A stretch of 63,986 bases of DNA, filler included, from Perkinsus olseni (GCA_013115125.1; 4 parts of 4 records of this genome joined end to end with filler, not necessarily neighbours in it); one strand, 5' to 3'; positions 70 to 55,471 are shown, counted from the whole stretch's first letter. A program made the numbers and translations. The notes: generated by a model not told the origin, from the sequence alone.

Positions 70-71
<2 letters not shown>

Positions 72-5800: not shown

Positions 5801-7690
5801 CTTCATTCGACTGCTGCTGCTGGGTATCGACAGCCTCTCCCTCCTCCACGCCAAAGCTCAGGCGGGATCCTTCCTCTGAGGACAACGCCGTCAGGAACAG
5901 CTTGCGATCGGGTCGGCTCACCCCTAGGCTCCACGTGCCCGTCATCCTCGCCGAAGACGAGGCCGGCTGTGGTCGTAGCGGGGCTTGGACGTTCTAACCG
6001 CAATTTCGTGGCGCAGTGAAGCTTTTCGGGCAACCTACGCGTTGTCGTGGTTGTTGATGGCATTGTAGTGGTCGTTGGCCGGGTGGTGATGGTGACTTCC
6101 TCGGGCAGCTTCCCCGTGGTTGCTGAGGGACCAACGCCTGACAGCGGCCTACGCTGCACCGACGCCCTACCTTCGAAGATGTCCTCATCCTCCTTCTCCT
6201 CGACGATCCCTTCTTCCTCAGAGAAGTTCGGGTTCACTGCGTTGCTATTGCGACTAATGGGGACCTCTTCGATATCCTCGTCGCCCTCCTCCTCTGTCCA
6301 GACGCGACTTCAATGCTACTCCCTTCAGAGAAATACCAACCCACCTGGCAAGCCGTGATCCTGCTTGTCCTCCCCTACGGTTTTCTTCTCCTGAAATCAT
6401 GGGAATAATGGAAAGAATTAACGACACAGAGGGGCCTACGAAAATGAAGACGAGGAAGCATCTCATCGCCCTCCGATCCTTGAAGCGGAACTCGACGATA
6501 TTGCCGTCCTTGAGGATGGCCGTGAGGAGAAGGTCGGAGGGGGCCGGGCCAAAGTATAGGGTGCTTAGGATGATGTCCAGCTTGTAGGGGGCGTCCGCAT
6601 GCTCGTCACTGATGGGGATAGGGGCACCCGAACGGCTGTCATACACTCGAATGCTCTGGGGGTCGCCTGCGGACGGGGAGTTCCACGACCAGCTCAGACG
6701 GAGCCCATCCTACTGTGACAGGCGGGTTTGTTGACGCCGGTGGTGGAGTTGTCGGGGACCACCACTGGCTGTAACGTCTCTTGACTTGAGTCTGGGGGAA
6801 GGATGAGCTGGTCTCGTAGGGCAGGGGACTTTCAGACTCACTCAATCGCTCTTCAACATCGCCCTCTTCCTCCTCGAAGTTGACGCCACTCGGGGCAGTG
6901 GTCGTAGTGGTAGGAGCAGCAGCTAAACGATGAAGCATCTCTGCAGGTTGCGAGGCGTCAGAACTTACTAGTCGTAGTTGAGGCCGCCTCCTGCTGGCCG
7001 GACTGGTGCTCGCTCTTACCTGAGGAGAGCGGTGGTGTCCAAGGCGGCCCGAGCCCTTACTTGATGTCTCTTCCTTGACGCCATCCTCGCTGCCAAAACT
7101 AAGTACGGCGCTGCCTCTCCTCGGGGCTCTGGTCGGCGGCTTGAGGGTAGTGGATATCGGGACTGGAAGAACACAGCAATCGACAGTGTCCCGACGGCAG
7201 TGCCAACCGACTTGGAGTGGTCACATCGCCGCCCTCCTCCTCGAAGAGCAACCCTGGCGTGGTGGTCACCGCCACTGAGAGTGAGAAGCTCAGCAGCCAC
7301 CGTTGGCGAGCCGATCGCTTACCTGTTTGCTGCTGCTGTCGGCCTGTCCCTTGGCCGTGGTAGTGCACACTCGAGGAGCCTGGCAAGAGGAGCAATTTCG
7401 TGGCGCAGTGACGATAGACGAGTTCCTGATCTCACTGGTGCGTTCGATCTCGCCAGACTCTCTGCCGAAGCTAAGACTTCCTCGTCTTGCATAGGTCACT
7501 GATGCCACTAAAGATACTTTTACGATTGCTCGAAGGCAGCACGGTGTTGAGACCATGGCTGTCAACGGAATGAAGGGGCCTGTGGGGATCCAACTATTAC
7601 GTCCATTGACCAACGGAACAACACTCGGCGGGAGGAAAGGATGATACTGTCGTTCCGATACCACACCAAAGGCAAATCTCGGTGAGCATC
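2862..7690 (-). CDS. Large multi-exon Thr/Pro-rich (mucin-like) repeat protein; possibly more than one gene
   Basis: Successive minus-strand ORF segments with TTTT/AP runs, each followed by a motif such as GVLFGESDGEVE, LRFGMEEGEA, GLVFGEDDGHVE or GVNFEEEEGDVE. Segments are separated by short GT-AG introns (e.g. ~5994-6038, ~7380-7435). Ends approximate. Confidence 0.65.
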
Positions 7691-7789
7691 TTCGGTGAAT
7701 TCTCGACAGAAAGTGACGGCAGAACAGGTTGGGGAGATTCCGCGACAGCTCTGAGGACAGACTCCGGCGTGAAGGGGGCCCGGGCTGCT

Positions 7790-9812
7790 ATGCGCTAAAT
7801 CAAACCAACTATGTTTGCCCGTAGTGCCTTGCTAACGTGAGGGGAGCCCTTCCGACCGGAACGCTCGAACGGTCGCAACGGAAACTGTCGGGGCGCAAGG
7901 TCGGCAAAGCATGATGGCATTTCGGCTGGGAGAGGGAGATGAGGGTTGTGCTGGGCTATGAGTGTAGACTGCGATGTAGGGTGCAGCGAGAGAGTGTACG
8001 TCAACTGGACACAAGAGGTTCTCGGGAAAGTGCGCCGAAGGCTGGCGTTGAGGAATAGTAAGGTGAGCCGAGAGCGCAAGTCTCGTGTAAGAATGGTTAG
8101 AGATGCTCGTGTCGAAATCGACTTACCACGGGATTCCGGACAGTTCCTGAGAGTCGGCATCGACAGTACGACAGTCTCCGGAGTAGCGGCACAGTACGAC
8201 GCATCAGCAGCTTCAGCGCTCTTTATTGATCGCTCATCGCTTTGGCGATAGTCGGTACTCAGCGCTGATTGCCCCTGAATGACGGTGCTCACTACAGTAC
8301 AGCGTGACACCTTCGTGAAGTTCAAAGAGCTGTACCCCACTCGGGGCCTGCCGCTGGCAAAGCGGCTTTACCCTAAGGAGTTCGCAGAGGTCACCAGCCA
8401 CGACTGGAGCCGCCTTGTGCATGAACTTGGGTACAGTCGGAGCGGCGACAAGAGGGTTAAGACCTCAGCGGTGGGTTACCGCTGCCATCACGATGCCAGC
8501 TAGTGACCTTCTTCAGGCGCCAAGACGCGGTAGTCGAGTAGTGCTGACTGGTGACACCACTCCGACCAGTGCCGATGACCATCGTCGCCGGAGCTCGGCA
8601 AGTAAATCCAGTGGCAGAGTAGAGAATGGCGAGGTAACCTTCCCAGGTGAACCTGCCTCGCTGCCGGATGGTGTCCGTGACGGTCAAGCTCCGACCAAAG
8701 ATCCCACCGAGGGCTCCGACAGCCCCTCCAATTCCCAACGTAGGGCTGGTTCGAAGACACGACCAACTCGATAGGCCGAGGAATGCTCGTTTTTCTCTTC
8801 ACTGCAGCAACACCCTATATGAAGTTCCTAGCCGTCCGGCATCGCGAGCTCAAGGAGCAAGGAGCACTCAAGCTCATCACACCGCGGGACATCACCGCCA
8901 CCATCCTATGCGAGTGGGAAGCCATGACGGAGTAGGGTGCTGCGGTAGAGCCTTCGAGGAGAATCGTCCTCGTTCAGAGACCAGCGGATAGCCTACGGGG
9001 CCTCTGCGCCTGTCCAGGTGAAGACGGAGGCCCCTAGTGGTGATGCTGTTGCCAAGGACGACGAATGCGCAGAAGCGGAGGTTGTGTTTGTCGAGGGAGG
9101 CCCTCCTCCAGGTGGCGGCATCCCCGTCGACTCCACAAGAGATTGTATCATTCGTGCGGAGCTGTGCTCCGATGAAGAATAACCTGCGAATGCACATCAC
9201 TAACCTTGCGTGAAGTTTCAACACCTCACGGGTCGCTCTGAGAATTGGTGAAGATGCGGTACGGCACTTAATCAGGAGAGTTCCTTCACTTTCATCGCCG
9301 CCTTCACGTAGTAGGTGGATCCCTCGCGTGGCCTTGCCCATGACCAGTTTATGCTACCACTCCATTGCCAATTTATATTCAAATCCGTATACCTGGTCGG
9401 TGGAGGCATAGTTGTTGCTTGCCTCTTTTTGACAATGTCGATGGCAGCACCCTCCCTGGACCACCTGGCACGACTTGACATTGCCCGTCTCGTGTCACCA
9501 TCGGTCACCATAAAGTCCACGAAGGCCCCCTTCCCTGACGGCCGCGAGAGGGCCACTGTACGCTTGCTTGCCACTGCTGGTAGGGCCACTGCACTCAGCG
9601 CTCCCTTTATCTGCTTGACAGGTCGGAGTCTGTCCCATAGAGTGCTGGAGCGAGAACTCAGCCTCCAGCGAGAGCCTTACCCCTCGATAGCTAAATTCCG
9701 GTACATCCACCGCACCCTCAGTCACATGAGTGTAGGCCGTCCGATCCCCGCTGCGGTCTTGTCTGCATCACAGTCGACTGTGTGTTGGACCATCGACTCC
9801 TCAGTAGTCTAG
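7790..9812 (+). CDS. Hypothetical multi-exon protein
   Basis: Chain of protein-like + strand ORF pieces (VYVNWTQEVLGKVRRRL, VQRDTFVKFKELYPTRGLPLAKRLYPKEF, IARLVSPSVTIKSTKAPF) separated by short GT-AG intron-like gaps. No family recognised. Confidence 0.35.
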
Positions 9813-10295
9813 AACCCAAGCAAACATGGCGAGGGCGGATTTAAAAAGCACTGTTGGCGTATTAGTGTCGATCAGAGCGATGCCGTGAGCGTTGGTGGAG
9901 AAGCGTATACCATCTCTTAGAGTATCATACTTGAATTTCAGTTCGCTCTTGTTCACGCATTGTGAGTCGCGCACCTCTTACGCTAATAATTTGTGGACGG
10001 GTTCCTAATTATTAACATGCCCTTGTGTCTTGTCGAGACCTTCAAAGTCTGAAATTACCATCTCAAACTACCCTGATATAGCTGGTTCGATGGCAGCCTC
10101 CATGGTGTCAGGTCAGCCGGTTCGTAACGAAGGTGATGAGTATCGGGGCTGCCTTGAAGGGAACCAGCTGCAGGAGGAAAGCTGTAAGTGCTGCTCACTG
10201 AGGACGGAGCTCCTATTCGTCGAGCCCAAATTGAATGGCCATCATGTCCCACTCAGCTAGGTGACGTTCTTCGCCTTCGTGGGTTGGGCGGCGCC

Positions 10296-12565
10296 ATGCC
10301 TGATGCAGGGCTATCATCACCACGCCTGGCTGCTCAGCCTCCTACAACGTAACCATCTCTAACAGCCTCGGAGAATTCCGACTGTGGGGGTAGGTGTGAC
10401 CGAGGAGAGTACTAGCGTGAATCCAACGCTAGTCGAAGAGCTAGCTGCTGAGTTTGAGGTGGACTTGGAGGAGGACTCCGAGCTCAAGGATGTCCTTTAT
10501 GAATGTCTAAGATATGACGGAGAGGAGGGCAGGGCGGCTGAGGCAAGGCGGAACGTGGAGGCTTCCAGAACGTCTCAATCATATTGAGCTAACATTGAGA
10601 CTTGTTCTCTCTGATATTCATAAGTACACGCGTGCTACTAGCATTGACAGAATCACAAGATTCCAAGTTTCGGGAACGAGTTAGTGCACTAGAGTGGAAT
10701 GGATCGGATAGGAGATAAGGCGATAAGCGTAGAGAGTACAAGAGCCAAGGGGCGACAGCTTTGGAGCTATTCTAAGGAATTGCGTGACGGGAGGAGGGCG
10801 AATTATGGTATAGAAATTGGATTAATGGACGACTACGAAGGGAACGGGAGCGACGAATATTATTAAGTCGAATGCCTTCGATCGCTTAGGGCGAAGGGCT
10901 GAGGATACTGACAGACGGCTACACGGACCTTCTGCAGAGACTGGACCCGCAGGAGAGTCTCGTGGTTGCCCAGGACCCTGAGTGCCAACCCTCTGCTGCT
11001 GTCGTGTCGCTTCGTCACTCTGAGGCTCCTCAGTTCGGTCCTTCCCACGGCCTGGATCGATCTCTACGCCGAGGCTTACCTCAAGTTGGAACCTCTGGTC
11101 AGGGCAGGGCGTTATCCCTGCTCGCCTCGTGGGGCCTTCCTCAGGGCCATCGCCGCCATCGCTCCGTCGAGGCCAGGTACAGCCGATCTGTCCTCAGCTA
11201 TGCCGGCTGCAGGCTTGAACGTGTTCAGATATTATCGTCACCCGCATACGTCGGGTACATCTGCTGCACTCACTGGCCACACTGGAGGTACGCAGACTCG
11301 ACACCCGTATTGAGGGCATTGATGAACCGACTGGCGAGGACAGCGTTGAAGCTCCGTCGGCGGTCGCCCTCGAAGACAACCCAGACCCGTCCGCCTCCTC
11401 GCCGCGGAGTGCGGTCGAGGAAGTCCACTCGTCCACAAGTCTCACTCGCCCTACTTCGGTCTCTTCCCTCTTGTCATCCTCCAGCTCGGAGTCGGTCGGT
11501 GACCTGCCTGAGGAGGCACCGAGCGTGGCGGAGGTCAGCTCGCTGAACTACTCCGCGACAGAACACGGGTCGCCTCGACTGAAATGGCGCGGCCCGGTGG
11601 AAGATACGCGGTTGGATGTTGAACCTGCTGGGGATGTTGAACGATGCCATCGAGGAGGCTCGGACGAAGGGAGACGACGTAACAAGACTCGAGGGCAGTT
11701 TCGGCCCCGAGTCCTTGTCCCGCCGGTGCGCCCTTACCCGGTGAGTGAAGAGGAAGCAAAGTGCGACGGCGGCCTGCACGCGATGCCCCCAATGGAAGCT
11801 CCTCCGTCGGGGACTTCCGGCGATGAACCGGTGGAGTCTCCCATTGTGAGAGATTCGGACGAAATTGTAGACAACGAGCTCCGCTCCGCCCTACCAAGTA
11901 CCACTGGATCATGCCACCCGCCAGTGGAGCCCAGCTCGATCGTCGAAGATAGTGCCCGTAGCAGCAGGGGTCGCAGACGCCTCGTGAACGGCATCAACAT
12001 GCGCTTCGGATTCTCGTCGGTGAGGGAGCTCGAGGATGCCCTCGTGGCCAAGCGGAAGTCACTCGGGTTAGATGATAGCGATGCTGGGCGTCGCATTGAA
12101 GCCAAGGTGGCCGAATCCAGATCAAAGGTCGACCCTGGTCGAACACAGTTTATGTCGGAGCTGCGGGCGAAGGTCGCCCAGATGCAGCAGCGGATGGACG
12201 CCTTGAGGTCCTCGCCCGCAGGGGTATCGAAGGTCGATCCTGGCACGAGCAGCCTCGAGGATACCGTTGCGAGGTCGTTGGTATGGGATGGTATGGATCC
12301 GGTCGAGGCACGGATGTTGGCCCGCAAGGTTGACAAGGCCAGGGTCAGTCGGGTCCTCGAACGCCTGGCAACCCATTCGAGTACCCTTACCGGAGCGAAG
12401 GGAGAGGTCCAGAAGTTGCAGAAGCTTGCCTCCCGACGTAGGGCAGCTAGCTCTGTTCAGGAGCAGGATAGGATCAGCGATATGAACATTACACGGTGTT
12501 TTCCTCCTCAGGTGAACTGCAAGGGAGAACCGATACCGTCGTTGGCAGGGGGCAAAACTAATTAG
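10296..12565 (+). CDS. Hypothetical multi-exon protein with low-complexity and coiled-coil-like C-terminal exon
   Basis: 364-codon open frame 11471-12565 (FMSELRAKVAQMQQRMDALR) preceded by exon-like pieces (LVEELAAEFEVDLEEDSELKDVLYECL; DGYTDLLQRLDPQESL). Boundaries uncertain. Confidence 0.45.
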
Positions 12566-12650
12566 CAAGCATACTCGGCAACTGTCTCTCCCTCCGCCGG
12601 GCTGCTGCGTTGTAGTTCCTGAGAGGGGGTGACCCTCTCCCTAGTCCCTG

Positions 12651-14285
12651 ATGCTCTACTTTCTGATATGGCTGCTCCGCCCAACGCCAGTGTCTACCTT
12701 GGCTGCGGATTACCCTCTTCCTCCCTGCAGTGCCGAGTGCACCATCGAGCTGAACCCTAGCGTCCTCGCGAGGAGTGGAGACCCGCTGCACTTGAAGTGG
12801 TCCGTAGAGTCCAACAACGAGTCCGACTGGATAGGCTTCTTCGCTCCGCCCTTCCATTCCCCCACCTATGACGATTACGTTATGCGCTTCAAACCGCACA
12901 TGATCGGGGCCTCGGAGCACACGTTGTCCCTGACGAACCTTCGGGCTCCTTTCTATGACGTCCGCTACATCTCAGCCGCGACCGGGCAGTGCCTTTGCCG
13001 AGCCAATGAGAGAGTGAGATTCGAGATGGGCCATCATGAGCCAAGTCAGGGCCACGTCACCGTGGATACCACAACTGGTGCTCTTAAAGTCCACTGGGTC
13101 AGCGGGGATCCGAACCCAGGCTTCGTCGAGTACAAGGCGGCAGGCGATGCGGACTGGTCTGTGAGGCACGCCACTGTTGCTACGTACGACTTCCACGACA
13201 TGTGTGGTGGTGATATGGATAACTACTACGACCCGGGTTACTTCTACTCGGCCACTTTGCCCGGGGACTTGAAGGGTGAGATCACTGTACGCTTCGGCAG
13301 CATCTTTCACCGTTCGAAGGCATTCATTGTTGCCACCCCTGTCCCACCGGGCTCGGCCGAGGTCCACAGCGTAGCGCTGTTTGGAGACATGGGGGTTCAG
13401 AGTTTTTATCGAGGGCCCGATAAGGTGGAGGTCCCCAACGGCCGCTGGGATACCTACTGGGTCCAAGACCACATGCGGGCCAACCCGAGGCTCAGGATGG
13501 CGGTGCACTTCGGCGACGTGTCTTATGCTATGGGGCGCTCTCGAGTCTGGGACCTCTTCGGCACAGCTGTTGAGGACGTGGCCATGAGGATGCCTTATAT
13601 GGTGAGCATTGGTAACCATGAGTTCGACTATGTTGACGGAGGTTGGCACCCGTCGTGGGGCAACTTCGGTATGGATTCTGGCGGCGAGTGCGGTGTCCCG
13701 ACCAAGCATAGGTACCAGTTTCCTTATTGGTGGTATGCCTTCTCCTTTGGCCTCGTCCGCTATGTTATGCTGTCCTCTGAGCATGACTGGACGGAGGGCA
13801 GTGAACAGTGGCAGTGGTTGGATGAACAGCTAGCTGAAGTCGACAGATCGGTGACGCCGTGGGTCATCGTCACCGCCCATCGCCCAATGTTGGTATCAGG
13901 CTATGACCCGTCCGAGCGGGCTGTCGAGGACCACATGTATCCTGCCCTCGGCCCCCTGCTCAAGAAGCACAGAGTGAACCTGTTTGTTGCTGGCCACTGG
14001 CACTACTATGAGAGGACACATCCGGTGGACGGCACGGTGCACGTGCTAGCGGGAAGTGCCGGGGCCTTCGACCTTCATGACGTCTTTGAGGACCTGCCTC
14101 GAGTAGCGGCGCGATGGCCCGACGTCCGTGGGTATCTCGAGCTCAAGGTCACCAAAGACGAGCTCGAAGGCACCTTCTGGGGCATCAACAACACCATGAC
14201 AGATAGACGTATGGCTGTGTTCGACCACTTTACAGTTGCCCCATGGGCTGAGGGCCCCTTGGAGATCCACACCGAGACCTCGTGA
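12651..14285 (+). CDS. Purple acid phosphatase / metallophosphoesterase (nucleotide pyrophosphatase-like PAP), secreted, intronless, 544 aa
   Basis: All five PAP metal-binding blocks: FGDMG, GDVSY, GNHE, VTAH, GHWH. Also DSGGECGVP and hydrophobic N-terminus. Confidence 0.93.
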   Translation: MLYFLIWLLRPTPVSTLAADYPLPPCSAECTIELNPSVLARSGDPLHLKWSVESNNESDWIGFFAPPFHSPTYDDYVMRFKPHMIGASEHTLSLTNLRAPFYDVRYISAATGQCLCRANERVRFEMGHHEPSQGHVTVDTTTGALKVHWVSGDPNPGFVEYKAAGDADWSVRHATVATYDFHDMCGGDMDNYYDPGYFYSATLPGDLKGEITVRFGSIFHRSKAFIVATPVPPGSAEVHSVALFGDMGVQSFYRGPDKVEVPNGRWDTYWVQDHMRANPRLRMAVHFGDVSYAMGRSRVWDLFGTAVEDVAMRMPYMVSIGNHEFDYVDGGWHPSWGNFGMDSGGECGVPTKHRYQFPYWWYAFSFGLVRYVMLSSEHDWTEGSEQWQWLDEQLAEVDRSVTPWVIVTAHRPMLVSGYDPSERAVEDHMYPALGPLLKKHRVNLFVAGHWHYYERTHPVDGTVHVLAGSAGAFDLHDVFEDLPRVAARWPDVRGYLELKVTKDELEGTFWGINNTMTDRRMAVFDHFTVAPWAEGPLEIHTETS

Positions 14286-36096: not shown

Positions 36097-39000
36097 TCAA
36101 CCTCTTCCCAGGTCAAGGCCGTCCGCATTTCGAAGTCGCTGTTGGCCATCCATGTCGCCGCCATCCGGGTTCATCACAGAATTTCTAAAAAAAGATCAAA
36201 TCGATCGCGTGATCGATTTGCCCGAACCCAAACCTACGAAGCCTGATCATCTGCATCATCCTCCATCGCTAAACGAATATATCTGAAAACAAACGTTTTC
36301 TTGTCGCTCGCGAAAAATCCCCGAAAATTTTAGGAAAAATTTTCGGAAATTCGCCCAATATAGTAAAATCCTCACGTAGCATTGAACTCATTTTATTTCG
36401 TAATTCTCCAACCCCCCAAGCAATTACGGAAAAAATCTCAAAAATTTCGAATATTTTTCTGCAAAAATTCTCCACCAAACCAGCGGACCACCCCAAAAGA
36501 TTTCAACTGCGGGCAGAAAAATATTTTTACGAAAAATTCGCAAAAAATTCCGCCAATTTCCTCACTCTTGCGCGCAAAAACGGTCCCAATCGCTGTAGTC
36601 CGGATGCTCCAGCTGCTCCTGTTTTATAGAGAAGGGGTCTCGTTGCTCGTACCTGAGCACGGATAAATCGATCACTCGGGCGCGCGCTGAATTAAATCGC
36701 ACCAGAAAAAGAGGATACTATTAAATACGGACTGAGAAGATTAGCGTCACCACGCCACGAAATTGAGAGCGACTGTACTGCAGTTGGTAGTCGTCAAAAC
36801 ACATTTGGCGTTGAGGAAATGCAAGAGAGCAAGTCATGGTGCTCTGCTGCGAATCTTTAAAGTGCGCAGGTTCAAAAGATACGTCATCCCTGCTCACGCT
36901 AGGAACTTGTTCAAGCTCAGCAAAATGCTGAAAAAGATTCCCGAAATCTTCCGCGTGCGCTTGAAATCCTCCAATTCAAATTGACCTTCCTGCTCCGGCC
37001 TGAACAAGAAAAAAAATTCCGGAAAAATTCCGGAATAATTTCGGGGCGCGCGACGGTGTTACATGATTAGATCGTTCATTTGACACAGAATATCTTGAAA
37101 TTGGACAGCTTCTTGATGAAGGCACTCAAGCCGTTGAACTTGCTCGAGATAAAAATACCTGCTCACATCAATGGTGACCAAATCGATCACCAGGGCGAGC
37201 GCTACTTACGCCATCTCATGATCCCTGATCACACCGTCACCGTCCAAGTCAACCAACTTGAAGAAATACTCCAATGACGTGTCAGTCGTCTTGTCCTCGT
37301 CCGAAATCAAAAACCCTGACAAATCGATCAACTGGGCGCGCGCTTTTTACAAATATGAGGGGGCTCACAACAGAAGTCTTCGTAACCCATTTTTCCGGGG
37401 ATGCCGGAGATGAACTTTGCCGGAATTTCCGAGAATATCCGGTCGATCGCTTTCCGAGAAAACGCGTGGCCATCGTACTTGAGCAGATCATCCTGACAAG
37501 AGTATCTTTAGGTCGAGCATGCAAGATGCAGACGAGGTTCGTGCAATTGAATCTTCAGGTCAATCACGTAAGATACAGAAGAGGTCAAGATACGTGATCT
37601 TGACGTGTGAATAATTTCCGCAGAGTGAACGAATCTTCCCCTCAATCATGTAAGATACAGAAAAGGTCAACACGAAACAATTTCCGGGCGCGCGAGAAAA
37701 CCCTCGAACCGTTTCTTACTTTATCCAGTAGGAAATCATGGTCTTCATCCAGCTCCCAAAATTTGCAATATAAAACGTAAAAATGTTCATAGGAAAAGTA
37801 CGCGCGTATCTTGTTGATATCTTCGCACTGGTCGAGCTCGAGCCAGGTATCCACCAGGGACGGTCGGGACCTCTGACAATGACCGAAAATTACGATAGGA
37901 AATTTTCCGAGAATCACAAGAAAAATCACAAAATAATTACAAAAATAATTGCAAAAATTTGCCGAAAAATACCGAAAATCTAAAATTTAATTTCAGGTGA
38001 ATTTCGTCGCGCAGTTTGAAACAAGCGTGAAAAAATATGAGTAAAACAGCGGAGCGAAAATCTGAAAATGAAAACATTCAGCGATAACGGTAACTGAGAA
38101 GTCCACGGTCGTTTCTGAAGATTCCGCATTCTCTGTAAAAATTCTAACATAATATTTTCCCAACATAATCGATCAACCGTTTCACAATGCTCACATTTAA
38201 ATCTCTCAAAGTAATTCGTCCCAACTGTCGCGAATCGCAACAGTAGAAGATTCTACACAAAACCGTGTCCGTGTACCGATCTTGAAACTCGGGCGTATCT
38301 TGCAGGAACTCCAAACCCGGGTGGGTGTCCAGCAAAACTGATAAGAAAAATGCAATGCAATTAGCGCTCGCCCAGTTGATCGATTTACCCCAAACGAACT
38401 CTCGGAAGTCGTTTTTAACGATAAACTCGCACGTATCTTTCCGCACTATATTGAAGAAGTTCTCATAGGCCTTGCCAAGCTCCAGGCCGATACCGCGCCA
38501 GTATCTAAAAAGTTGAGAAATTGCAAGATTGCAAGATTCAGAAAGCGTCACTGCGCCACGAAATTACTTCACAAACATATCTTTTGTTACGGCCGCGCTT
38601 TCATCAGCTCCATTGAAAGAGCGTATCCGACGCAAAATAGGGTCTGCGAAATACCTGGCAAAATAATGTCGCGCGCCACGAAATTAAAAGTGGCGAAAAA
38701 AGAAGGCGGAGCGAAGCACAGCTCACATCGACACGCAAAGTTGTTCACTGCAGAACGTCTGCCATATAGAAAAGCAATCCTCGTCCATTGGGTCGATTGG
38801 ACCTGAGTAAAAACGTCACAATCCCGGAATAAATCCCCCACTCAGACGATTCTGACGCTCCTCTGGCGCCAAGTTACTCAACCGATCCGGACGCCGAGAA
38901 TCGCGAGAAAAACCGAAACAAAAAACGCTTCGCTCCGCTAACCTCCCAGTTCTTCAAACAGTTGACTGATGACCTCCTTTTCTCGCGTCGTCAACGGATC

Positions 39001-43070: not shown

Positions 43071-46000
43071 TTCGCTAATTCGTACGAATTCGAAATCCTA
43101 CCCGCTGTCGGCGAGGCCCTTGAGAAGGCCGCGATCTGGCAGTTGACGGCCGGGACAAGCGAGCACCGTCACGCGCCTGAAAAATTTTCAGAAAAGTTAG
43201 ACCGAAAAATCCGAGCGATGATTCGAAGCCAACGCTGCGCGTATCTTTTCAATAACTTCAACCTCCTTCCCACATCAACAGTGAAGTTTTTCCCCGGGTA
43301 AAAACGCCCTGCTGATCGACTACGGTCAGACGACACAACTACCATCACTGTGAGTTTGCGTGCGAAATATGATATATCAGGGAATGAAAATTTGCTGTTC
43401 ACAAGTCAGAGGGTTGAAGCACGGAAGAAACAGAAAAAAAGATGCACCGAAAAATTCAAGCAACTCCCACCTAAGCCCGCCGTTCAATAAAGTAATTCTG
43501 ACAATCAAGATTTTGAAAATTCAAATTCAAAATTCAAACTGAGATTTTGAAAATTCTGGAAAATATTTTTACGCGTAAAATGCGGTTCCAAAATCGCCTG
43601 TGATTTTCAGAATCGGTGTATTAAACGACCCCAGGACGTAAAGGGGGTTCGCGAAAAAAACTGAAAACACTTGGCAAGCCACGCCTTTTCATTCGTACTG
43701 AAACGGTTACACCCTAGAGCTTGAAACGACAATCAAAGATACTTTTCAGTGACACTCATGACATACACGGAATAGGTCGAATCACATACGGATACGCCAC
43801 CAACGTAGCTTAAAACTTCTCTTCCGAAAAAAAACTCGAAAAATTTCTTTCATAATAATACTTTCTTATATAAGAGCATACCGCACGCTCAACAAGAAAC
43901 TCAGTCAACTTTCACAATTATGAATTCTGAATTTTCGGCTTCGACGCCGAAAATCCACAACATCAAAAATACCGTCGAAAAAAGCTCAACAACTCAGTGA
44001 AAATTAATCAACAACAAATGGCAGTTTACTCAAAATTCTATCGTGCAGGGCTGAACGTGTCACCAGCAACTGCTGACGATCATCATCGCTAACTATTACT
44101 ACGATAAAGGTAATAACTATAGCCTACTATCAGAAACGGTTGAGACCGAACATAAATTATGATATACCGTAATCTACGTAGAAGAATTAAATTATCATCA
44201 CGCGCGTACCAAAAAAAACTTTTCATGAAATATATGAATTATTTTTTCTAATTCATGAATCATAATCATGCTCTTATACAGTAGATACGGCATCTCAGCA
44301 CAGAGCAGCAACGACAAGCCGGCTTCGGAGTGCTGACGAGATTTGGGCGTGGTGTGGTACGCCAAAACTGGCGTATCCAGCCCCCGGTCCTTTACTACCT
44401 TTCCGAAACATACGCGCAAAAGGACTTGCGCTATAATGCGGTCGTCGATAATTTCGTGGCGCGTGACGATGACATTGGCTGGAGCACTGAGCGGCCGTTT
44501 GTGATGGTCGTGCTCAACCCCAAGATGCGTCTTAGAGCGACCCGTGCCCTCTGGATACGTGCCTGATCGGATCTGCAGGTCGGAGGAATCTTTTCAACTC
44601 GCGAAAAGCCATGATCGACCTGTCACACCAAAGATACGTTTCTTGATACTCTCAGTGATCGGGCGCAAATTTGAACGACGCATTAGGAAGCAAGCCGAAT
44701 ACAGGCGTATCCAAGGTCGACCCTTGCATCATACAAAAATGATATCAGCATTCTCCCTGCCTATCATGACCAAGACGGTAAGTCATAGTGTGAAGAGCGG
44801 AAGTTGTGGTATTCACCAATTCCCAGGGTCTTAAAACTACGCACGCGCGAGGACCGTTCGTAGTTCCACAACAAGCTACTTCTTTTCCGTGAAAACGAAC
44901 ATTCACAAATACCCGGCGAAAAATTCTCTCCTATTTCCGAAGTCGTACCAGAATCGAAAATTTTTATTTTTGTAACAGGTTACCACTTTTTCGTCCAACG
45001 GAATGAACTCAGAATGAAACGAAATCGATAATTAATATCGAAGATGTATAATAATTCCCACAGTCTGAATTTCGATAATGAATTTTTCAACAACATTCTC
45101 TCCGCGCCAAAAATAAAATTGCAAAAAATTCCGCACAAACTAGGAGAAAACTTTTTTACCGAAAACTTCCAGAACCGAAAATTTGAAGTTCATAACCGGT
45201 TGTGACTTCTCCGACTAACGAAATTTCACGTAAAGCAAGAGAGCGAAAATTTCCATGACGAATGCCAAACATCTCCATCCGCAAGTGGTATCCAAAAAAT
45301 CCTCAGGAGAAAAATTTGACACGGAAATAATTATCGACGGTAAGATATTCTTTCTCGAGTGTTACCGGAGCCGAAAATACTTAATTCATAACACGTAACC
45401 ACCCTTGCTAGGAGAAGTCCCAAAAAGCAATACAATGACAAGCATTAAGGGATGCTCGATAAACTTCAAGTTTCCATCAAAACTCGCGTTCTCTCTAGCC
45501 AAAGAAAAACACAGAAAAAATTCCAAAAACGCCAAGATACAACTTTTCCTCCCAGTACTACCAAAGTCCTGCCCGGCCACACCCGCTGAACCCTTGCAAT
45601 TTCGATTTACATCACCTGATAAGACCATTCTCCATGTTTCGGAAATTCGCCGACCAACCGAAAATCACTGGCGCGTTCCTCTCACGACGAGACCATTTCC
45701 CGATCCAGCAACGGTGTCAGATTTTTCCAGTTCAATAACAGGCGATCAATATTCTGCGCAAATGGGGAAATTTGAGTAACGGCAGTGAAAACAGTACACC
45801 AAAAGAATCAGAACCACAAAACATAAATCACAACAACCAAAGCGACATCCGCTGGCAAAGTATGCCCACTCGATACGCGTTTAATATTGAAGAAAGACGG
45901 CTTTCACGAGTTCTCAGTACGCTCGCTGAACAGGTTTTTGTTGAGTTCTACATTCTCTCGCTATCCTAGGAAACGGGTAACGAGGCCAGTGTCAAGGGTC

Positions 46001-46969
46001 CGACCTTCTCATAGCCGACGATGATTTCTGATGACAAAAGCGTAAAAACGAATGATGACCCTCTCTCCTGTCGTTGTTAACTGTTGACAGCGAACCAGCT
46101 GTGTTACCCGAAGTACCAAGGTCGGACTTTTCGAGAAGAATAATTGCACGAGTCCGCGCGGAAAGCGAGCTCCGCCAGGAAGGGCTCGCGTTGTTTTCAC
46201 TGTAAGACGCAAATGAAAACTGTATCGTGTGATACGGGTGAATCTTAAGTAAAGATACCATCACTCTAGGTTGACCTGCTGAGGCAAGATATTCTGGTAA
46301 TAGAGCTTGATCAGTCAGCGTCACTGCGCCACGAAATTCGCTCCTCCCCTATTACCGCTGTTCGCTACAGACATTCCCGTTTCTACTGCCTGCGACTCGG
46401 CCATGGGTGAGTCATAATGATGGGAGAAAGAATCTCTACAGTGGACTGCTTCGCGAACCCCACCCTTCCCTCCGGTCGAAGTCACCTGAGCGGCTCAATG
46501 GAGGCTTTCCTTATACATCGTGCTGTACATGGTATAATCGCCACGTCTCTCAGCACAAAGGGCGCCGGCTGTCACGCCAATTTTACGCAATACTGGTCTT
46601 CAAAAACTCTTCCGTCGCCAGCTGCTGCGGTCACCTGAGCGTCTCAAATAACTCTTAATTACCTTTCACATTAGAATTGTTGGTACAGTATAAGATTCAA
46701 GATTCGTTGCGTCGCAAAGAAACGCTCAAACGATTCCTGCAGGGCGCGCGCAGATCTTGGCCGGTGGTCCAGTCGGTAGCAACCGGAGTTTGTTTACTTT
46801 TTGTACTGACCTCGGCCCTCGGCCCTCGGCCCCGCGATAACGCTGAGGTGAAACCTGGGATTCGAACGGTGAAGCGACAGGAGAAGCGCTGCGCTGGATG
46901 CCGTGGCGCGCCGAAAAAATACAGGGAAAATGTAAGGTGCCGGGATCGAACCTGGAAGCCCACGCGGAC

Positions 46970-47071
46970 TCAAAATTAATGACATGGAATTTCGGTAACG
47001 ACTAAGGTACCAGGGAGTACCGTGAATCGCGGTACGTGATTATTGTACCTTGCAGGCACTACCTGCTGCAG
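46970..47071 (+). repeat. ~100-bp direct repeat copy 1 (ends in CTACCTGC-T-GCAGGTAG hairpin)
   Basis: Colinear with 48580-48681 at 1610-bp offset with few substitutions. Confidence 0.9.
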
Positions 47072-48138: not shown

Positions 48139-48545
48139 TCAACGAGATGGTCTCGTCGAGACCCATTCAACCACGTGGGCTCTACAAGTTGGGGAACTGT
48201 TGTTATCTAAACGCGCGTTACTACACTGTTTAGGAAACAACGAGCGCTTGAGGGCTGCGATAGTCCACAAAGAGAGTTGCAACCACTCGAACGTGAGTTA
48301 TTTTGAACAACGGTTGTTCAACAACCAGTTGTTTTGGCTAGTCTGAGATATTCAGCAAACGGCATGCACCGAGTGTGCATTATCTCGCCTGCCGACGCAT
48401 CATCCGGATAGTGCCGCTTCGCTTGTTTATCCCACAGAAGTCAGAAATGGGGCCCCATTATGGGGGTCGATCAACCTGTAAGTTGGGACGTACTCAGGTT
48501 GTAGAGATGATGAACCGATCTTTACCTTTGAACGGAAACAACAGG
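48139..48545 (+). pseudogene. Ubiquitin-specific protease (peptidase C19) Cys-box fragment, frameshifted and truncated
   Basis: PRGLYKLGNCCYLNA, then after a frameshift near 48215 ALLHCL (consensus GLxNLGNTCYxNSxLQCL). Followed by CTECAL and FTFERKQQ. No His box before the repeat at 48580. Confidence 0.7.
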
Positions 48546-48579
48546 TGACAAATTTAGGGCACCCGAAAAAAATTCCGAT

Positions 48580-48713
48580 TCAAAATTAATGACTTGGAAA
48601 TTCGGTAACGACTAAGATACCAGGGAGTACCGTGAATCGCGGTCCGTGATGATTGTACGTTGCAGGCACTACCTGCTGCAGCCTGCAGCCTGCAGGTAGT
48701 GTCGTACTACTAG
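48580..48713 (+). repeat. Direct repeat copy 2, ending hairpin-8 nt-CTAG|T (Helitron-like 3' end)
   Basis: CACTACCTGC...GCAGGTAGTG stem, then TCGTACTA, CTAG (48710-48713), then T. Confidence 0.7.
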
Positions 48714-50139
48714 TATCGGACCAGAGAAAGCTCTGGTTCAGTGGTGGCAATACTTAGTCTTGCTGGTTTGGAAGATTCTCGAATAGACACCCGAGCACCA
48801 ACAATGGAGTGGAATCAGCCAACGCGAAGATCGAGGGAGTACTACTCCCGGAGTAGTCATACGGGAAAAACAGCTTATCATAAGCTAGAGGTGCTGACTA
48901 AGTCGAGCACCTCTCGACTTTCCACACCAAAGTCGAGTCGACTTTGGGCACACGGTAGCAAAGAAGTTGTTGCCTACGTTCATCGGAGATGCAAACCCCA
49001 ATGTGTTCGGCGAACAGTTCAGCTACAGGAAATTCAAGTCGCACACGGAGCTTGAAGTGGGGTCCCCACTGTGGGGAAGGTGTATTTCGGGAAGGCCTCC
49101 GATTGGGAGCAAAGCGATCCACTTCCCTGCGAACTGGACTTCCTGAATTCTTCTCTTGTGGTCACGGTGTCTCCGGGGTCGACAAGGAGTACCTGAGCGA
49201 CAACAACGTGAACCGGTCCGGATCAACGGTTGAACCAGTCTGGTTCACGTTCTTGAACTTCAACCAGTTCCTAAGACTTGTTCAGGGCGAGAGAGTGGTC
49301 GACCTTTCTGAGGACTCAAGGGCATATGTAGGAGACTATACGCAACCAGCCTCCTCGGAAAGCTGTCGAAACTGGAGGCAAACTAGTGGCTCTGAGCAGC
49401 TTGCCCATGCGCGGGTTCCCTCAAGCCTTGAGGCTCAAGGATAAGGTTTGTTATCATCAAATCGCAATAGCTTCAAAGTTCGTTGCCATTTTGGCTCAAG
49501 GTCTCAGACTGAAACTCTCAGTGTACGCTTGGTTGACGCAACTTTCCAGCTAGGACGGGTCGTGTTGACTCCAGTGATCATCAGAAGGCATCGAGCAGCA
49601 ACACAAGACTCGTACGGTACAAGCCTTGCGTGACCACTGGTCATTGACCAGCTCCGGGGTCAGTTTTACTGCGGGGTGGCTTGCATAGCAAGCTCCGACT
49701 CGGAGACTCCGAGTCTTGCGCGAAGCTGTCGCAACTCGCGATCGAGTCGAAGCTCGATTTTCGAGCAATCATGGCGGGGTCACCCTGTGTTACTTGGATC
49801 TCGTGAAGACTATACGCTCGTGAAAATCACGCGAAGTGCATGGTTGAAATTATGCGATCCACTAGTAACAGGTGAGAGTATAGTCGCCCTCCTTGGGGAG
49901 CCCATAGCCTTCACATGTATGCAAAACAAAACATGTAAAGGTCAATGATTGGACGACATTTTCAGCACACATCACTCAACTCGTAAGCGCGCTCAATTGA
50001 CAGACATCATGCTAAGATAGCCGTTAGAACGCGTTTGAGACGCTTCCTCGATTCTCACATACTGCACTGCAGGATTTGCAGCGCAAGAAGCCGCAGACAT
50101 CGCAGGAAAGCATTCAAATCCTCAATGGAAAAGCCTTCT

Positions 50140-51111
50140 TCAACTTTTTCGCGGTCTAAACTGAATGTTGAATTCGGGAGGCAGATCGAGATCCCATTTC
50201 CTCAAGTCCGGGCCACTGAGGTGTCTCCTTTCATGCTCTCTCACATTGCATAAAGCTCTTGTATTATAACCGCGTGGTTTCCTCAAACCCATCAATCGTA
50301 GAATTCCAGCAAAAAGGCCTTTATCCCTGCCTCTGACCTTTTTGAGAATCAGGAAAGTATTTCGGCTCTCCGGAACTCTCTCCACTCTTTTCACGAGAGC
50401 GAATACACCGTTGCATATTGGGTGGAATATTACTCTACGATTCATCCCCACACCCTCTTCAACAGTGAGATCAGCGTCTATCAGCTCACCCCGACGGAAA
50501 GCCAACTGGAGAGTTCTCTCTTTACGACTACCCGCGTAGATTCCATCCAGTACGGAATGATTTGAGGTGGACTGAAGCGCCGAGAAACCGTTGGCGCATA
50601 TCTGTTCTATTTCCTCCCGGACAGACTGCGGAACCTCTTCTCTTACAGGCGGGCCACCACTATGAAAAGAAGATTCAATCAGTGTGATATTCTCGAAACA
50701 ACGGCCGTGCCTAGCGACGTCAGCCTCGTACTCCAAAGTCTCGCCATATTGTAGTCGAAAAAGTTTAGCTTTGGCAACCCTCTCATTGTAGTAGTCCCAC
50801 ACGTTGAAGGGGTAGTAATCGTACACTATTAGGTTGCTCTTCATTGCTTTGGCGTCTCGGCTCCGTGCCGCTTCCAGGAATCTCCCTTTGAATTGGCTGA
50901 GGCCAAGTTGTTGTGCATCATGGAGGTCAGTAACCGCGCCCCAATCTCGCGGCATCACAAGATACTCCACGTCTTCGCGAACTTGAGCGTACAGGACTTC
51001 ACCTTCTCTGTAAACCACGGTGGTGGAAGGGTGTACCACTGGTACACCGTGATACAGTACCAGTAGGCGTCCAAAGAAGGCGGTCAGGAGAGAAGACTTC
51101 GAAAGTGCCAT
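50140..51111 (-). CDS. Intronless hypothetical protein (~323 aa), possibly secreted
   Basis: Long uninterrupted ORF, ATG at 51111, hydrophobic N-terminus (SLLTAFFGRLLVLYHGV). No family recognised. Confidence 0.6.
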   Translation of the reverse strand: MALSKSSLLTAFFGRLLVLYHGVPVVHPSTTVVYREGEVLYAQVREDVEYLVMPRDWGAVTDLHDAQQLGLSQFKGRFLEAARSRDAKAMKSNLIVYDYYPFNVWDYYNERVAKAKLFRLQYGETLEYEADVARHGRCFENITLIESSFHSGGPPVREEVPQSVREEIEQICANGFSALQSTSNHSVLDGIYAGSRKERTLQLAFRRGELIDADLTVEEGVGMNRRVIFHPICNGVFALVKRVERVPESRNTFLILKKVRGRDKGLFAGILRLMGLRKPRGYNTRALCNVREHERRHLSGPDLRKWDLDLPPEFNIQFRPRKS

Positions 51112-52161
51112 AACCCGGAGCGGCTGAAACAACTCACTTCAAAAAAGGTGGCGGCTGTAACCAAGGTGGCCCACAGAGCTGCCGCTCATCTATACAAGCT
51201 AAGATATGATTCTACACGAGACTGAACACAGGGAATGCCGCAGCAAAGCCCTGAGTTTCTTGTAGCTCGTTCTCGGGACCCTCGAGGAGGGTCACTGAGT
51301 CTGACTCAGGTTGAAAGGCTCCTCGTGGCCATGAAAGAGTTCAGTGAGCTCGAGGAAGTCAAAGCGAGTGAGGTAGTCATCACGCGTTTGTCAAGGTTTC
51401 ATCGTTCGCAGGGCTGCCTAGCAGGTCACCTGCTGCAGGTGGGGCCTAGAAAATTCCTAGTAGGAATCGCACGTGCTGACTCCCAATTGTACTAGCGAGG
51501 GAAGAGTCCAGCGCTCGAATGTCGGATGTCGCACGCCTTCGGAATCCGTATGCACCGAGGGCGTTCGCTGAGCGAACTTCGCTTAACGCTTCCACAAACT
51601 TTGTCGTTTAACGACAATTCCTCGTCTCCTCGGAGCCCTGCTGGGCCTACGTAGAGTCTGCCTGTACAGTATGTGAATCCAGAAGAGATCCTTCAGTGAA
51701 GAATCCCTCCTGGGTGACTCGATTCGGGATCGGATCCCGGGGATCCCGCTGCGATTTTACGCTCGTCAAGATTGGCGTTTTTGATTTGTTGCAATCTGCT
51801 CGTCCCGAGCGGCTTGTGACTAGAATTTTTTGGAGCATCGCGACCATTTCTTCAAACTTGATTTCAACTATTGAGAACTCAACTTGATTATCCTAGAAAA
51901 TGATGTTTCGAATGAATTGTGCACTTTAAGTTACGAAAAGCGCGAGATGAAAAAGAACGAAGCAATGGGTCTACGCCAGGGTCCGGGTTGGCGACAAACG
52001 CCTTATGGATCAGGGTCCGTTCTGACCCGAGGTCAACAGTCGAGGCTGTCTAGTCAACAGAGCACAAGACCCACCACCATACCCTAGGTGCTCACCGATT
52101 CACATTCGATTATCCGGGCTAGGCCTGGCCGAACACTGCAGCCGAGTGATAAGCTTACTGG

Positions 52162-52488
52162 TCATATGAGTTTGTAGACATCATACCCATTTGACACAGT
52201 CGGTACATAAAGGGACTTGTAGGTGGACACTATGAGGGAGTCATTCAAGAGCCGACCGTCGTAATAACCGATGGAATCTATGACTATCTCGCTGCACTCT
52301 CTTACCAGCGTTAAAATATACCTAGCGTGGTTCTGATCGATGTAGTATCCGCAATCGTATTCACCTCTCGGCAGACGGCCTTGGATAGAGGTCATGAAAA
52401 CCCTGCCACCCTGCTCCCGGGTGAAGTGGAAACTCAGAATGGCTGCCTTCCCCTTAGAGGCGTGCAGCGTATATGTCTTATCGATAGG
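52162..52488 (-). CDS. 3' part of a hypothetical protein truncated by contig end
   Basis: Frame open from the contig edge (PIDKTYTLHASKG...LPRGEYDCGYYIDQ...YKLI*). Confidence 0.45.
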   Translation of the reverse strand, partial: PIDKTYTLHASKGKAAILSFHFTREQGGRVFMTSIQGRLPRGEYDCGYYIDQNHARYILTLVRECSEIVIDSIGYYDGRLLNDSLIVSTYKSLYVPTVSNGYDVYKLI

Positions 52489-52588: not shown

Positions 52589-52828
52589 TCCCCATATGTT
52601 CCCTCCCAATCGCGATCGCGCGCGCCTCGCTTTAAACTCGCCCAATAAATTGACCGGTCAAGGAACGCATTTAGTGGCGCGCGAAAATTATCAGCATCAG
52701 TGACGATGAAAGATCCCGGGTTCAAATCGCGGGAGGTGCATTTTCTCAAGAAGGAATCCTGCTAGGCTAAAAGTCGTCCCTTCCAAAACACAATCATCAG
52801 TTTGTATATTCATAATTTATTATCAAGC

Positions 52829-55471
52829 ATGGCAGAGAAGACCTGCGTCGTAGTCGGTGCCGGTGTAGTCGGGTTGGCCATCACTCGCGCTCTTGCAAGA
52901 TGTGCTGCTACTCAAGTAAGAAGTTCGCGGATTTATGGTATAACGTTTTCATACTAGTAATAAAATCATACTCGTTCACCACGGACAAAAACTCTTGTCA
53001 AACCCCGAAAGGTAGTTGGACTCACTATCAGCTTTTTGGGAACTAAAAATATGTATAAATGCTCCGTTCGTGCCGCAAAAGCTCTTAAAGAAGCGCTTCA
53101 CTCGTAGGCTTGTCGATAGCACGATCGTTCAACAAGCATGCTGTTCTGCTTGGTGGATGCTGATGCTCTCTCTTCCCCTAGGTCATATGCATTGATAAGC
53201 ACTCACGGTTCGGTGAGGAGACCAGCAGTCGCAACAGCGAAGTCCTCCATCAAGGTAGACATAGTCGAATGACATCCACCTATCAAGACTGGCCTAGGTA
53301 TTTATTACAAGAAAGATTCCCTCAAGGCCAGGACGTGTGTCCGGGGTGCACGATTGATGGAGAGCTTCATCCACCAGCACAACATCACCACACTTCCATG
53401 CGGTACTAACGGGCAGACCCTCCACAGCTTCGGGCCATCTCCCGTCCCGGCGGCGTCTTAGACTCGACAGAGGTCTCCTGACTATCCCGGATTTTTTCTC
53501 CGCCCGTTCCGTAAACTGAGGATTTTCAATAGACAGCCTCTCCTGAATTGCAGGTGCGCTCTCAGGATTGAATTTGTCGTGTAAAGACGAACCTGGGGGG
53601 CGCTTACGGAACTAAGTAGAGATCTGTTGAACAGCCGAACTAATTTTGAAACTCGGGATTCATTTTTCCACGAGTATTGGTCTATTGAGTAGTTCATCAT
53701 CATTCTGGTAGGTGCGTATATCGTGGCGCGTGACAGAGAGCAGCTCGGTGAACTCCTCCGTAAAGCACGAGTGAACGGTGCCAGAGACGTCGACTGGGCC
53801 CCGTCCCTGCCTGAGGGGGTGAGAATGCCCCAAGTCTTGCCCGAATTCTGATCGGTGCCCTCGCAGGTCCCTCCCGATTTCTCCGCCCTTTGGAGCGCCA
53901 ACACTTCTATTTTCGACTCCCATGGTGTCATGGAGGCCTTACGAGACGACGCAGAAGAGCACGGCGCTATGATTGCCACTGATAACAAAGTGACTAGTAA
54001 GAATAGTAGTACTAGTATATGCTGCATAAAGATCGTGCACTGAATCAGCGTAGTGTCAGCGTGTTCAGTAGTCCAAATGTTATCACCATTATTGCTTGTT
54101 GTTCTCTCTGCCCGTCGTCCGATGCGCATGTGCTCTAGTTGATAGAAGTAGTCCTTGCCGGTGGCGTCCCATCAGGTGTATCTTACTCCGAGGCTGCTGC
54201 CTCCAGTGGTGAGCCTCCCTTCACTTTACTACTCAATGGTGGGGAGGACTCCATGCCCTGCGATATCCTGATCAACGCCGCTGGTCTGCATGCTACTCAT
54301 TTTTCTAAACTATGGCTCGAGGACAGCGACACTGTCCACATTCCCACCACCAGGTCCGTCTTCCCTCGTCTGCCGTCTAACCACGCTGATTGGTTCCTTC
54401 AGGTTCGTTAAGGGTAATTATTTCAAACTGAAGAGCGGTATCAAGTTCCCATTCAAGAGCTTGGTCTACCCCCAGCCAACAGCGACTGGACTCGGTAATA
54501 CCGCCCCCCCCCTCCATCTAGTGAGGACGCCTCTCTCCTCAGGCACACACTGCACCCTCAGCCTCGATGGCAAGGCTTTGAAATTCGGTCCTAATGGGGA
54601 ATGGCTGGCGGATGATGTCGATTTGGGTGAGTTGTGGTACTTGTCTGGTGGTCTTATATATATTGACTTTGATCTTGTCCGATATTACCGAGAGGCTAAT
54701 GTGGTTCATTATCATACTTTATTAATAGTTGTGGAGCGAGCGGAGCATCTCCTGTCACTTGTGTGTTTTTCCGTGCGTGGGTTCGTTCAAATTGTTGCTC
54801 GACGACTATGTTGACTGAACTCGCGGGATGCGCACCATTCGGGAGCGCGCGGTCTGTGTATTCTACAAAAATACGAATTGGTTATCATTCACATTCTACC
54901 AGCCAAAATCGTTGTGCGCTGTGGTAGATGGTCCCGAAAAAATACAGAGAAAAGCCCGCGCTAGGGTTCGAACCGGGGAAGGTTGTGTCGAGCTCCGCTT
55001 TTTCGTTATGAAGGTCTAGTGGTATGATCTCCCCTCGAAATAGGATTGATCAACAGAATTTAGCACTTCCATAATATATCTAGTATAATAAGGGGACGTC
55101 ATAGCATAAGTCGATTGTCATCAGATGACTTCAAAACTTATCAAGTTGACCCGGCCATGGCCGATGAGTTTTACGACAGCATCCGAGACTACTGGCCTGA
55201 CCTCCCGGATGACTCCCTTGAGCCCGACTACTCCGGCATTCGACCAAAAATCGGCGAAGGCGATTTCGTTATCGACGATCATGGTTACACTGGAAAGCAC
55301 GTGTCACTGTGAGTGTCTCGACAAGTTTCACTGCGCCACGAAATTGCCCCGGCTTCGGTTAGATACGGCATAGAGTCCCCCGGCTTGACTGCTTCATTGG
55401 CCATTGCCGAGGAGGTATTGGATAAGTTGGGGATGAAAACAGAAGAGCCTCTGCCCGAGACTGTCGAGTGA
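52829..55471 (+). CDS. L2HGDH: L-2-hydroxyglutarate dehydrogenase (FAD-dependent oxidoreductase), multi-exon
   Basis: [11 protein letters not shown] (GxGxxG), [77 protein letters not shown]. Confidence 0.92.

Follow-up and report, generated by a model that had tools for sequence, protein, structure and literature searches.

An 18-bp motif that apparently marks a family of short interspersed repeats living mainly in Perkinsus introns

The stretch of DNA analyzed here, called the window throughout, comprises 63,986 nucleotides of Perkinsus olseni in four contigs (1-17440, 17541-34973, 35074-52488 and 52589-63986; the first three span 17440, 17433 and 17415 bases), which are joined by linkers of 44 N, TTAATTAATTAA and 44 N and which, their lengths suggesting contigs sorted by size, presumably represent unlinked loci. 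Within it, an 18-bp sequence, TCACTGCGCCACGAAATT, which we refer to as the core of M1, is found in five exact copies. An earlier note, made from the sequence alone, had described these copies as a motif recurring in short introns of unrelated genes and had proposed either a proliferating, introner-like family of tiny introns or a genome-wide protein-binding or splicing element. According to our analysis M1 is real and non-random, a family of short interspersed repeats that appears to be undescribed and resides mostly in introns of Perkinsus. We found no account of M1 or of Perkinsus intron repeats in the published work that we searched, the supplements of which could list such families.

The genes that host M1 lie on contigs 1, 3 and 4. 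On contig 1, a minus-strand gene (2344-7556) for a mucin-like, Thr/Pro-rich protein of about 1100 residues contains many repeats ending ..FGE(E/S)DGEV.. and some 20 short introns. Certain repeat units have an intron where others lack one at the comparable place, a hint of recent intron turnover. The exons are a near-perfect match to the P. olseni gene model P0121. This model joins ...TTTTT to QRPSPATTT..., leaving out 5994-6038 (15 codons absent from the model), and ...ERTS to SSSVHY..., leaving out 7380-7435, the removal of which is also demanded by the reading frame. The origin of the DNA is further reflected in a purple-acid-phosphatase open reading frame (ORF) of 546 codons, which shares 92% identity with a protein of P. 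olseni, compared with 77% for P. marinus and 70% for P. chesapeaki; both results point to P. olseni or something very close to it.

Sequencing reads were compared on contig 3 only, using the runs X7 and X10 (presumed RNA) as well as X1 and X8 (DNA, X8 being diverged); stretches of this contig without RNA cover, for example 49018-51341, were not counted as evidence. A minus-strand gene on contig 3 is crossed by 13 CT..AC joints, equivalent to GT..AG on the minus strand, which come from X7 and X10 and occur in neither X1 nor X8. One of its exons matches Pfam EF-hand_13 (E = 2.9e-16), which we take to be the EF-hand of the PP2A regulatory subunit B'', in agreement with the PP2A label that the gene had been given in the earlier note. 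Further along the same contig, X7 covers 43011-46383 with low-depth unspliced contigs, so that the copies at 44450 and 46321 lie in transcribed DNA without joints, where no gene model was found. An ORF overlapping the 44450 copy had no homologue among longer proteins, which is weak evidence for non-coding DNA.

The gene on contig 4 belongs to the DAO family and resembles L2HGDH. Removal of 55309-55362 joins ...GKHVSL to the next exon, whereas an in-frame stop results if this interval is kept, and the flanking exon matches Pfam DAO. In the same gene, the sole join of ...VLHQ-G to IYYKKDS with an AG acceptor leaves a 43-nt intron at 53255-53297 that begins with GA and not with GT; such a non-canonical donor, judged from the reading frame, would resemble those reported for dinoflagellates.

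The M1 copies, with the introns in which they lie and two further core matches, are the following.

6002..6019, minus strand: exact M1, sense, in a 45-nt intron of the mucin-like Thr-rich repeat gene
5994..6038, minus strand: the intron holding the 6002 copy, 45 nt, GT..AG; the motif starts 19 nt past the donor's first base, and 8 nt separate its end from that of the intron
7394..7411, minus strand: exact M1, sense, in a 56-nt intron of the same mucin-like gene
7380..7435, minus strand: the intron holding the 7394 copy, 56 nt, GT..AG, from reading frame and P0121
36747..36764, plus strand: M1 variant with 2 mismatches, antisense, in the RNA-supported 245-nt intron 36653-36897
37037..37053, minus strand: M1-like 17-mer, 1 mismatch in the core, sense, in the RNA-supported 63-nt intron 37000-37062
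37679..37695, minus strand: M1-like 17-mer, 2 mismatches in the core, sense, in the RNA-supported 227-nt intron 37493-37719
38000..38017, minus strand: M1 variant with 3 mismatches, sense, in the RNA-supported 322-nt intron 37873-38194
38548..38565, plus strand: exact M1, antisense; read on the gene strand, it stands immediately after the GT donor
38505..38567, minus strand: intron of the PP2A B''-type gene, 63 nt, RNA-supported, made up of antisense M1, a 9-nt spacer and antisense M2 (see below); its joint 38504>38568 is seen in X7 and X10 only
38669..38685, plus strand: 17-mer variant of M1, antisense, within the RNA-supported 72-nt intron 38655-38726, where it stops 14 nt short of the 3' end
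44450..44466, minus strand: M1 17-mer variant in DNA covered by X7 without a joint
46321..46338, plus strand: exact M1 within a candidate 74-nt GT..AG interval, 46297-46370, also covered by unspliced X7 contigs
52668..52680, minus strand: core match with 2 mismatches, upstream of the DAO-family gene at about 150 nt from its ATG; may be chance
53717..53729, minus strand: core with 2 mismatches in a coding exon (YIVARD) of the DAO-family gene; probably chance
55328..55345, plus strand: exact M1, sense, in the last intron of the DAO-family (L2HGDH-like) gene
55309..55362, plus strand: the intron holding the 55328 copy, 54 nt, GT..AG, from frame and homology

A search of the window confirmed the positions of all five exact copies named in the earlier note (6002, 7394, 38548, 46321 and 55328) and of its four variants, two of which carry 2 (36747) and 3 (38000) mismatches, while those at 38669-38685 and 44450-44466 are 17-mers lacking one base. 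The spread over three of the four joined contigs (1, 3 and 4) was equally borne out, as were the intron placements: the introns of 45, 56 and 54 nt have the end of the motif 8, 14 and 17 nt before their last base, and two of them do read TTCACTGCGCCACGAAATTGC...GGTTAG. The claim that such a recurrence is not expected by chance holds as well. With up to 3 mismatches the 18-mer has 7 matches in the window, compared with a mean of 0.03 in 100 dinucleotide-preserving shuffles, none of which reached 7. A 13-mer core, GCGCCACGAAATT, allowed up to 2 mismatches, has 13 matches compared with a mean of 1.78 and a maximum of 5 in 50 block shuffles, and this search added the copies at 37037-37053, 37679-37695, 52668-52680 and 53717-53729, all on the minus strand. 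As the block shuffles yield 1.78 matches on average, about two of the 13 may be chance, and the matches upstream of a gene (52668) and in a coding exon (53717) are probably these. Furthermore, eight of the 11 eleven-mers that are present at least five times in the window come from M1.

We count about 11 credible members in the window. They fall into two subfamilies, the 18-mer TCACTGCGCCACGAAATT and a 17-mer with one base missing (TCRCGCGCC.. forms). Nine of the copies are intronic, six of them sense and three antisense to the host gene; among the exact copies, four of the five lie in introns. In the contig 3 gene, six of the 13 RNA-supported introns contain a member of the family (antisense at 36747, 38548 and 38669; sense at 37037, 37679 and 38000), and in the DAO-family gene one of the eight delimited introns does.

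The conservation of M1 has sharp limits. The five exact copies show no difference over the 18 positions, whereas at the 10 positions upstream the commonest base occurs in two to five of the five, and in the alignment their flanks are unlike one another beyond about 10 nt upstream and 2 nt downstream (GC). The 11- and 12-base cores with the end CACGAAATT occur 8 times each in the window; in the eight copies with an intact 12-mer every difference is confined to the first 6 positions, and GCGC and GAAATT are near-constant across the 11 copies. In a strict sense the unit measures about 22 bp (AGCG plus the core), or about 30 bp if the weakly conserved flanks are included.

The same picture emerges at other loci. 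In run X1, contigs from elsewhere have an end at the motif places 38686 (16 contigs), 44450 (17) and 44468 (26), with a flank agreement of 0.38-0.40, whereas ordinary repeats in the same comparison reach 0.61-0.97. As neither the window copies nor those at dozens of other loci have related flanks, M1 is very unlikely to be a piece of a larger transposon; this point, which the earlier note had named as one that would overturn its reading, was checked on the window copies and on the 16-26 other-locus contigs per place, and no conserved sequence past the motif was seen in either. No terminal inverted repeats or target-site duplications were found at any M1 copy in the window flanks inspected, which sets M1 apart from miniature inverted-repeat transposable elements, and no repeat of the initial four intron bases is present in the exon downstream of the introns 5994-6038, 7380-7435, 38505-38567 and 55309-55362. 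The M1 introns also fold no better than shuffled sequences (z +0.17 to +1.04; introns with M1 variants -0.68 and -1.62). In a metagenome scan, the exact 18-mer was found at 9 loci, three of which are one locus, with flanks unlike those of the window; by a rough estimate this is about the number expected by chance, so no relatives emerged from it. A published description of spliced-leader RNA (PMC9399869) was considered as well, and the leader sequences given there are unlike M1.

Other-locus contigs also contain two M1 copies 6, 8, 27 or 40 nt apart. In the window, two introns of unrelated genes are alike beyond the core: 5994-6038 and 55309-55362 match at 38 of 45 positions with one 9-nt indel. 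Of their first 19 bases 12 match, a value reached by one of 136 control pairs formed from 17 introns (mean 7.5), and both share the core, the GC after it and the last six bases, which are found in none of the 17 controls. This likeness between two intron sequences would fit an introner-like origin, for which it is suggestive, not strong. The other M1 introns in the 64 kb have the core of 18-22 nt in common, plus weak flanks only.

A self-comparison of the window revealed at least three short, sharp families besides M1. In the window those named M2 to M4 are confined to 36-43 kb.

M2, about 27 nt, CGTTGAGGAAATGCAAGATTGCAAGAT: 36808-36834, 38510-38537, 41015-41052, 41262-41288, 42873-42900 and 42971-43001, both orientations
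M3, about 24-30 nt, AGCGCKCGCCC-NNN-TGATCGATTT: 36665-36687, 37180-37203, 37321-37344, 38363-38386, 41555-41578 and 42731-42754
M3, palindromic half-copies: 36046-36067, 36197-36220 and 42012-42034
M4, 19 nt, GCTTCAACCTAAGATTCCC: 40055-40073, 41861-41879, 41899-41917 and 42578-42596, all plus strand

Inside the RNA-supported gene all copies of M2 to M4 are intronic, in either orientation, and the short introns there are largely built of modules: 41013-41055 is essentially one antisense M2, and 37159-37209, 37316-37368 and 38338-38388 contain one M3 each. Antisense M1 and antisense M3 directly after GT give the donors GTAATT and GTAAAT; in two introns the CTCAAC with which antisense M2 closes stands a few bases ahead of the acceptor, and M3, the central triplet of which is variable, is often preceded by the donor-like GTAAAA. 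M2 also forms a 31-nt inverted pair (42872-42902 and 42971-43001) with 68 nt between the copies. The 51-nt intron 37159-37209 forms a strong hairpin (-19.5 kcal/mol, z -3.44, matched by 1 of 200 shuffles), unlike the introns with M1. As the 17-mer subfamily of M1 and M3 have a GC-rich half in common, both may belong to one superfamily. On other-locus contigs M2 is joined to an M1 variant with 14 bases between them, and M3 is directly joined to M1. Together with the paired M1 copies at other loci, these joins indicate that the modules occur genome-wide and are variously combined.

Two multi-copy repeats of about 120 nt, at 39565-39693 and 46504-46620, have 19-45 contigs per run ending at their borders, where the assembly graph breaks; neither has a match in Rfam, and a direct repeat of about 19 nt flanks the second on both sides (near 46484-46502 and 46630-46650). 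(GTT)n microsatellites at 4-69 and 63972-63986 form the outer ends of the first and the last contig. On contig 3, the locus 51893-52488 reaches a depth of 3037 in X7, compared with 10-300 elsewhere on the contig, and one contig there carries sequencing-adapter letters at 51904.

With a confidence that falls a little short of an even chance, we favor the interpretation that an ultra-short interspersed repeat family with the 18-mer as its invariant core extends over the genome, occurring in either orientation in transcribed non-coding DNA and mainly in short spliceosomal introns. Identical copies, a division into discrete subfamilies whose members are identical, tandem and mixed arrangements and the pair 5994-6038/55309-55362 suggest that the family has spread by copying, for which a mobilizing enzyme, or templated insertion or gene conversion during break repair, would be possible routes. 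A sense unit of about 45-55 nt could form an entire spliceable intron, which would be the introner-like aspect of M1. On the other hand, the contrast between 18 invariant positions and drifting neighbors, and the restriction of differences to the first six positions in copies with an intact 12-mer, suggest that selection keeps the core intact while the flanks drift. The core would most plausibly be a recognition site for a sequence-specific factor acting on DNA; since both orientations persist, a role at the DNA level, putatively protein binding, is likelier than one at the RNA level. Copying and selection may both apply, in that a repeat spreads a functional site.

Several points weigh against this interpretation. 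Our data cover 64 kb and one read-mapped contig, from which genome-wide copy number, location classes and strand bias are extrapolated, and as six of the nine intronic copies sit in one gene, they do not establish that M1 is enriched in introns relative to other non-coding DNA. We saw neither an insertion footprint nor presence/absence polymorphism nor a mobilizing enzyme, mobility being read from the sequence pattern, and the likeness over whole introns comes from one pair with 12 of 19 upstream matches and a common 3' end. On the side of the supporting data, P0121 is a gene prediction and not a transcript, the RNA label of X7 and X10 is a guess made by a tool, and X1 is possibly the source of the assembly, in which case it is no independent evidence. 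Finally, a binding site under selection that has never moved would explain the invariant core and its drifting flanks about as well.

The last point leads to the alternative that has survived best, namely that M1 is purely a cis-regulatory or architectural motif, a long protein recognition site that is immobile, is selected wherever it is present and is mostly intronic because the genes are intron-dense and their spacers short. We regard this as unlikely, but it carries appreciable weight. It would account for the sharp boundaries of an invariant core in unrelated flanks, for the limitation of variation to certain positions, with GCGC and GAAATT almost fixed, for the occurrence of both orientations and for the clustering of six copies within 2 kb of one gene and of tandem copies elsewhere. 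However, five of about 11 copies identical over 18 positions, along with discrete subfamilies, are more usual for copied sequence than for sites that arose independently, and two introns are alike beyond the core. Moreover, at least three other equally sharp short families behave likewise and stand right next to M1 in various combinations, M1 shows no evident placement with respect to gene starts, and we know of no protein that binds M1.

Between a role in splicing and a by-product of DNA repair we see little to choose. The former would make M1 an RNA-level element of very short introns, part of the branch-site region or an intronic enhancer, acting in sense near the 3' splice site; the splicing element that had been proposed in the earlier note belongs here, and we consider it improbable. 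In its favor, the three annotated sense exact copies all end within 17 nt of the intron end, the candidate interval 46297-46370 would put the motif 32 nt before an AG, and in two introns the base preceding the motif makes TTCAC, by our own reading the sole branch-like pentamer there. In introns of 45-56 nt, however, any 18-mer is necessarily close to a splice site. A splice signal is expected in most introns, in sense only and at a fixed distance, whereas M1 is found in 6/13 and 1/8 introns, is antisense in three of nine copies and varies in position: of the antisense copies one abuts the donor, one is 14 nt from the acceptor and one is mid-intron, and the sense variants in the introns of 227 and 322 nt are far from the acceptor. 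Seven of the 13 RNA-supported introns and seven of the eight in the DAO-family gene carry no copy and have ordinary branch-like motifs. The absence from most introns together with the antisense copies therefore argues that M1 is no splice signal.

It is similarly improbable, in our view, that M1 has arisen as a by-product of break repair, in which a common template would have given rise to short templated insertions or tracts of gene conversion that piled up where they were harmless, without any element or function. Modules of only 19-27 bp in either orientation, the lack of terminal repeats and duplications and the pile-ups of M2-M4 within 7 kb would be in line with such an origin. But identical M1 on three presumably unlinked contigs and at dozens of other loci would need a common template in trans, and the contrast in conservation between core and flank is not expected of neutral filler.

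The chance that M1 is a relic of a longer known element, be it a transposon end or the head of a short interspersed nuclear element (SINE) derived from a transfer RNA (tRNA) or small nuclear RNA (snRNA), appears very slight: tRNA-like fragments followed by T-runs do occur in the window near 46905-46960, 52700-52740 and 54925-54975, but neither ARAGORN (0 tRNA genes) nor Rfam (0 matches at gathering score, and no tRNA around these fragments at E up to 5 in two sub-regions) supports such an origin, the flanks of the motif are unrelated at every copy, and the published description of the Dada transposons of P. marinus, as far as it was available to us, gives no link to M1. The antisense strand of M1 looks somewhat like the start of a tRNA (the first 18 bases with the A-box region) or an Sm site with a small stem, a resemblance that found no support in Rfam or ARAGORN. 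The three fragments themselves resemble the T-arm of a tRNA, and two of them then carry a common T-rich tail, AAAAAATACAGRGAAAA (plus strand), although no tRNA is recognized there by ARAGORN or Infernal.

Going further than our favored interpretation, it is conceivable, if rather unlikely, that M1 to M4 together form a class of modular elements that has not been described before: they would be ultra-short, at about 20-45 bp, lack terminal repeats and target duplications, insert either way, bring donor- or branch-like sequence with them and have built or remodeled a sizeable share of the tiny introns of this lineage, the M1 core being selected in addition as a factor binding site. Perkinsus belongs to an intron-rich sister lineage of the dinoflagellates, in which intron-creating mobile elements are thought to drive massive intron gain. 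If M1 is what we propose, modules of 18-30 bp that fill tiny introns in both orientations and without the usual marks of transposons would extend intron-associated repeats to a much smaller size, and the family would give a sequence handle on the origin and recognition of very short introns. Should the core be a binding site instead, it would rank among the first genome-wide cis-element candidates in a perkinsid; little is known about gene regulation in this group.

The proposal of the earlier note that M1 is introner-like is right for one part of the evidence and too narrow for the rest. Non-randomness, the location mostly in introns of unrelated genes and the one pair alike throughout agree with it. 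It does not cover the remaining copies, which have 18-22 (or, with flanks, about 30) bases in common, the three antisense copies at varying places in their introns, the two copies outside gene models and the lack of inverted repeats, target duplications and stable folds. The genome-wide protein-binding element that the earlier note had offered as an alternative may apply. A comparison with known introners leads to the same result. The introner-like elements of the dinoflagellates Symbiodinium and Polarella glacialis resemble M1 in that unrelated genes have introns of similar sequence, and some of their classes can create introns in both orientations, but they are alike along the whole element and have target-site duplications of 4-8 nt that supply a splice site (bioRxiv 10.1101/2020.10.14.339549). 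In contrast, M1 has mostly 18-30 common bases in a far shorter unit, the first four bases are not duplicated in the four introns inspected, and the canonical GT..AG borders stand at varying distances from the unit. The introners of Amoebophrya are likewise repeats that have invaded the introns of an alveolate parasite with no transposase clearly responsible, but they possess inverted repeats of 8-20 nt that pair the intron ends, direct repeats of 3-5 nt across the borders and non-canonical splice sites (PMC7789003), whereas the M1 introns have GT..AG borders, no such repeats and folds with z between 0.17 and 1.04. As M1 is far shorter and lacks the marks that define both groups in these descriptions, we file it under neither of them.

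Two further systems share features with M1. The introner-like elements of fungi (Dothideomycetes) are short near-identical introns in unrelated genes that decay to ordinary introns; they are alike over their full length and predicted to fold stably, whereas M1 displays full-length likeness only in one pair and no stable fold. Repeats can also spread protein-binding sites, as in the case of insulator or transcription-factor sites carried by SINEs. Although no carrier repeat is visible around it, M1 is like such sites in that a long, sharply bounded motif is present in many identical copies, in both orientations and in clusters.

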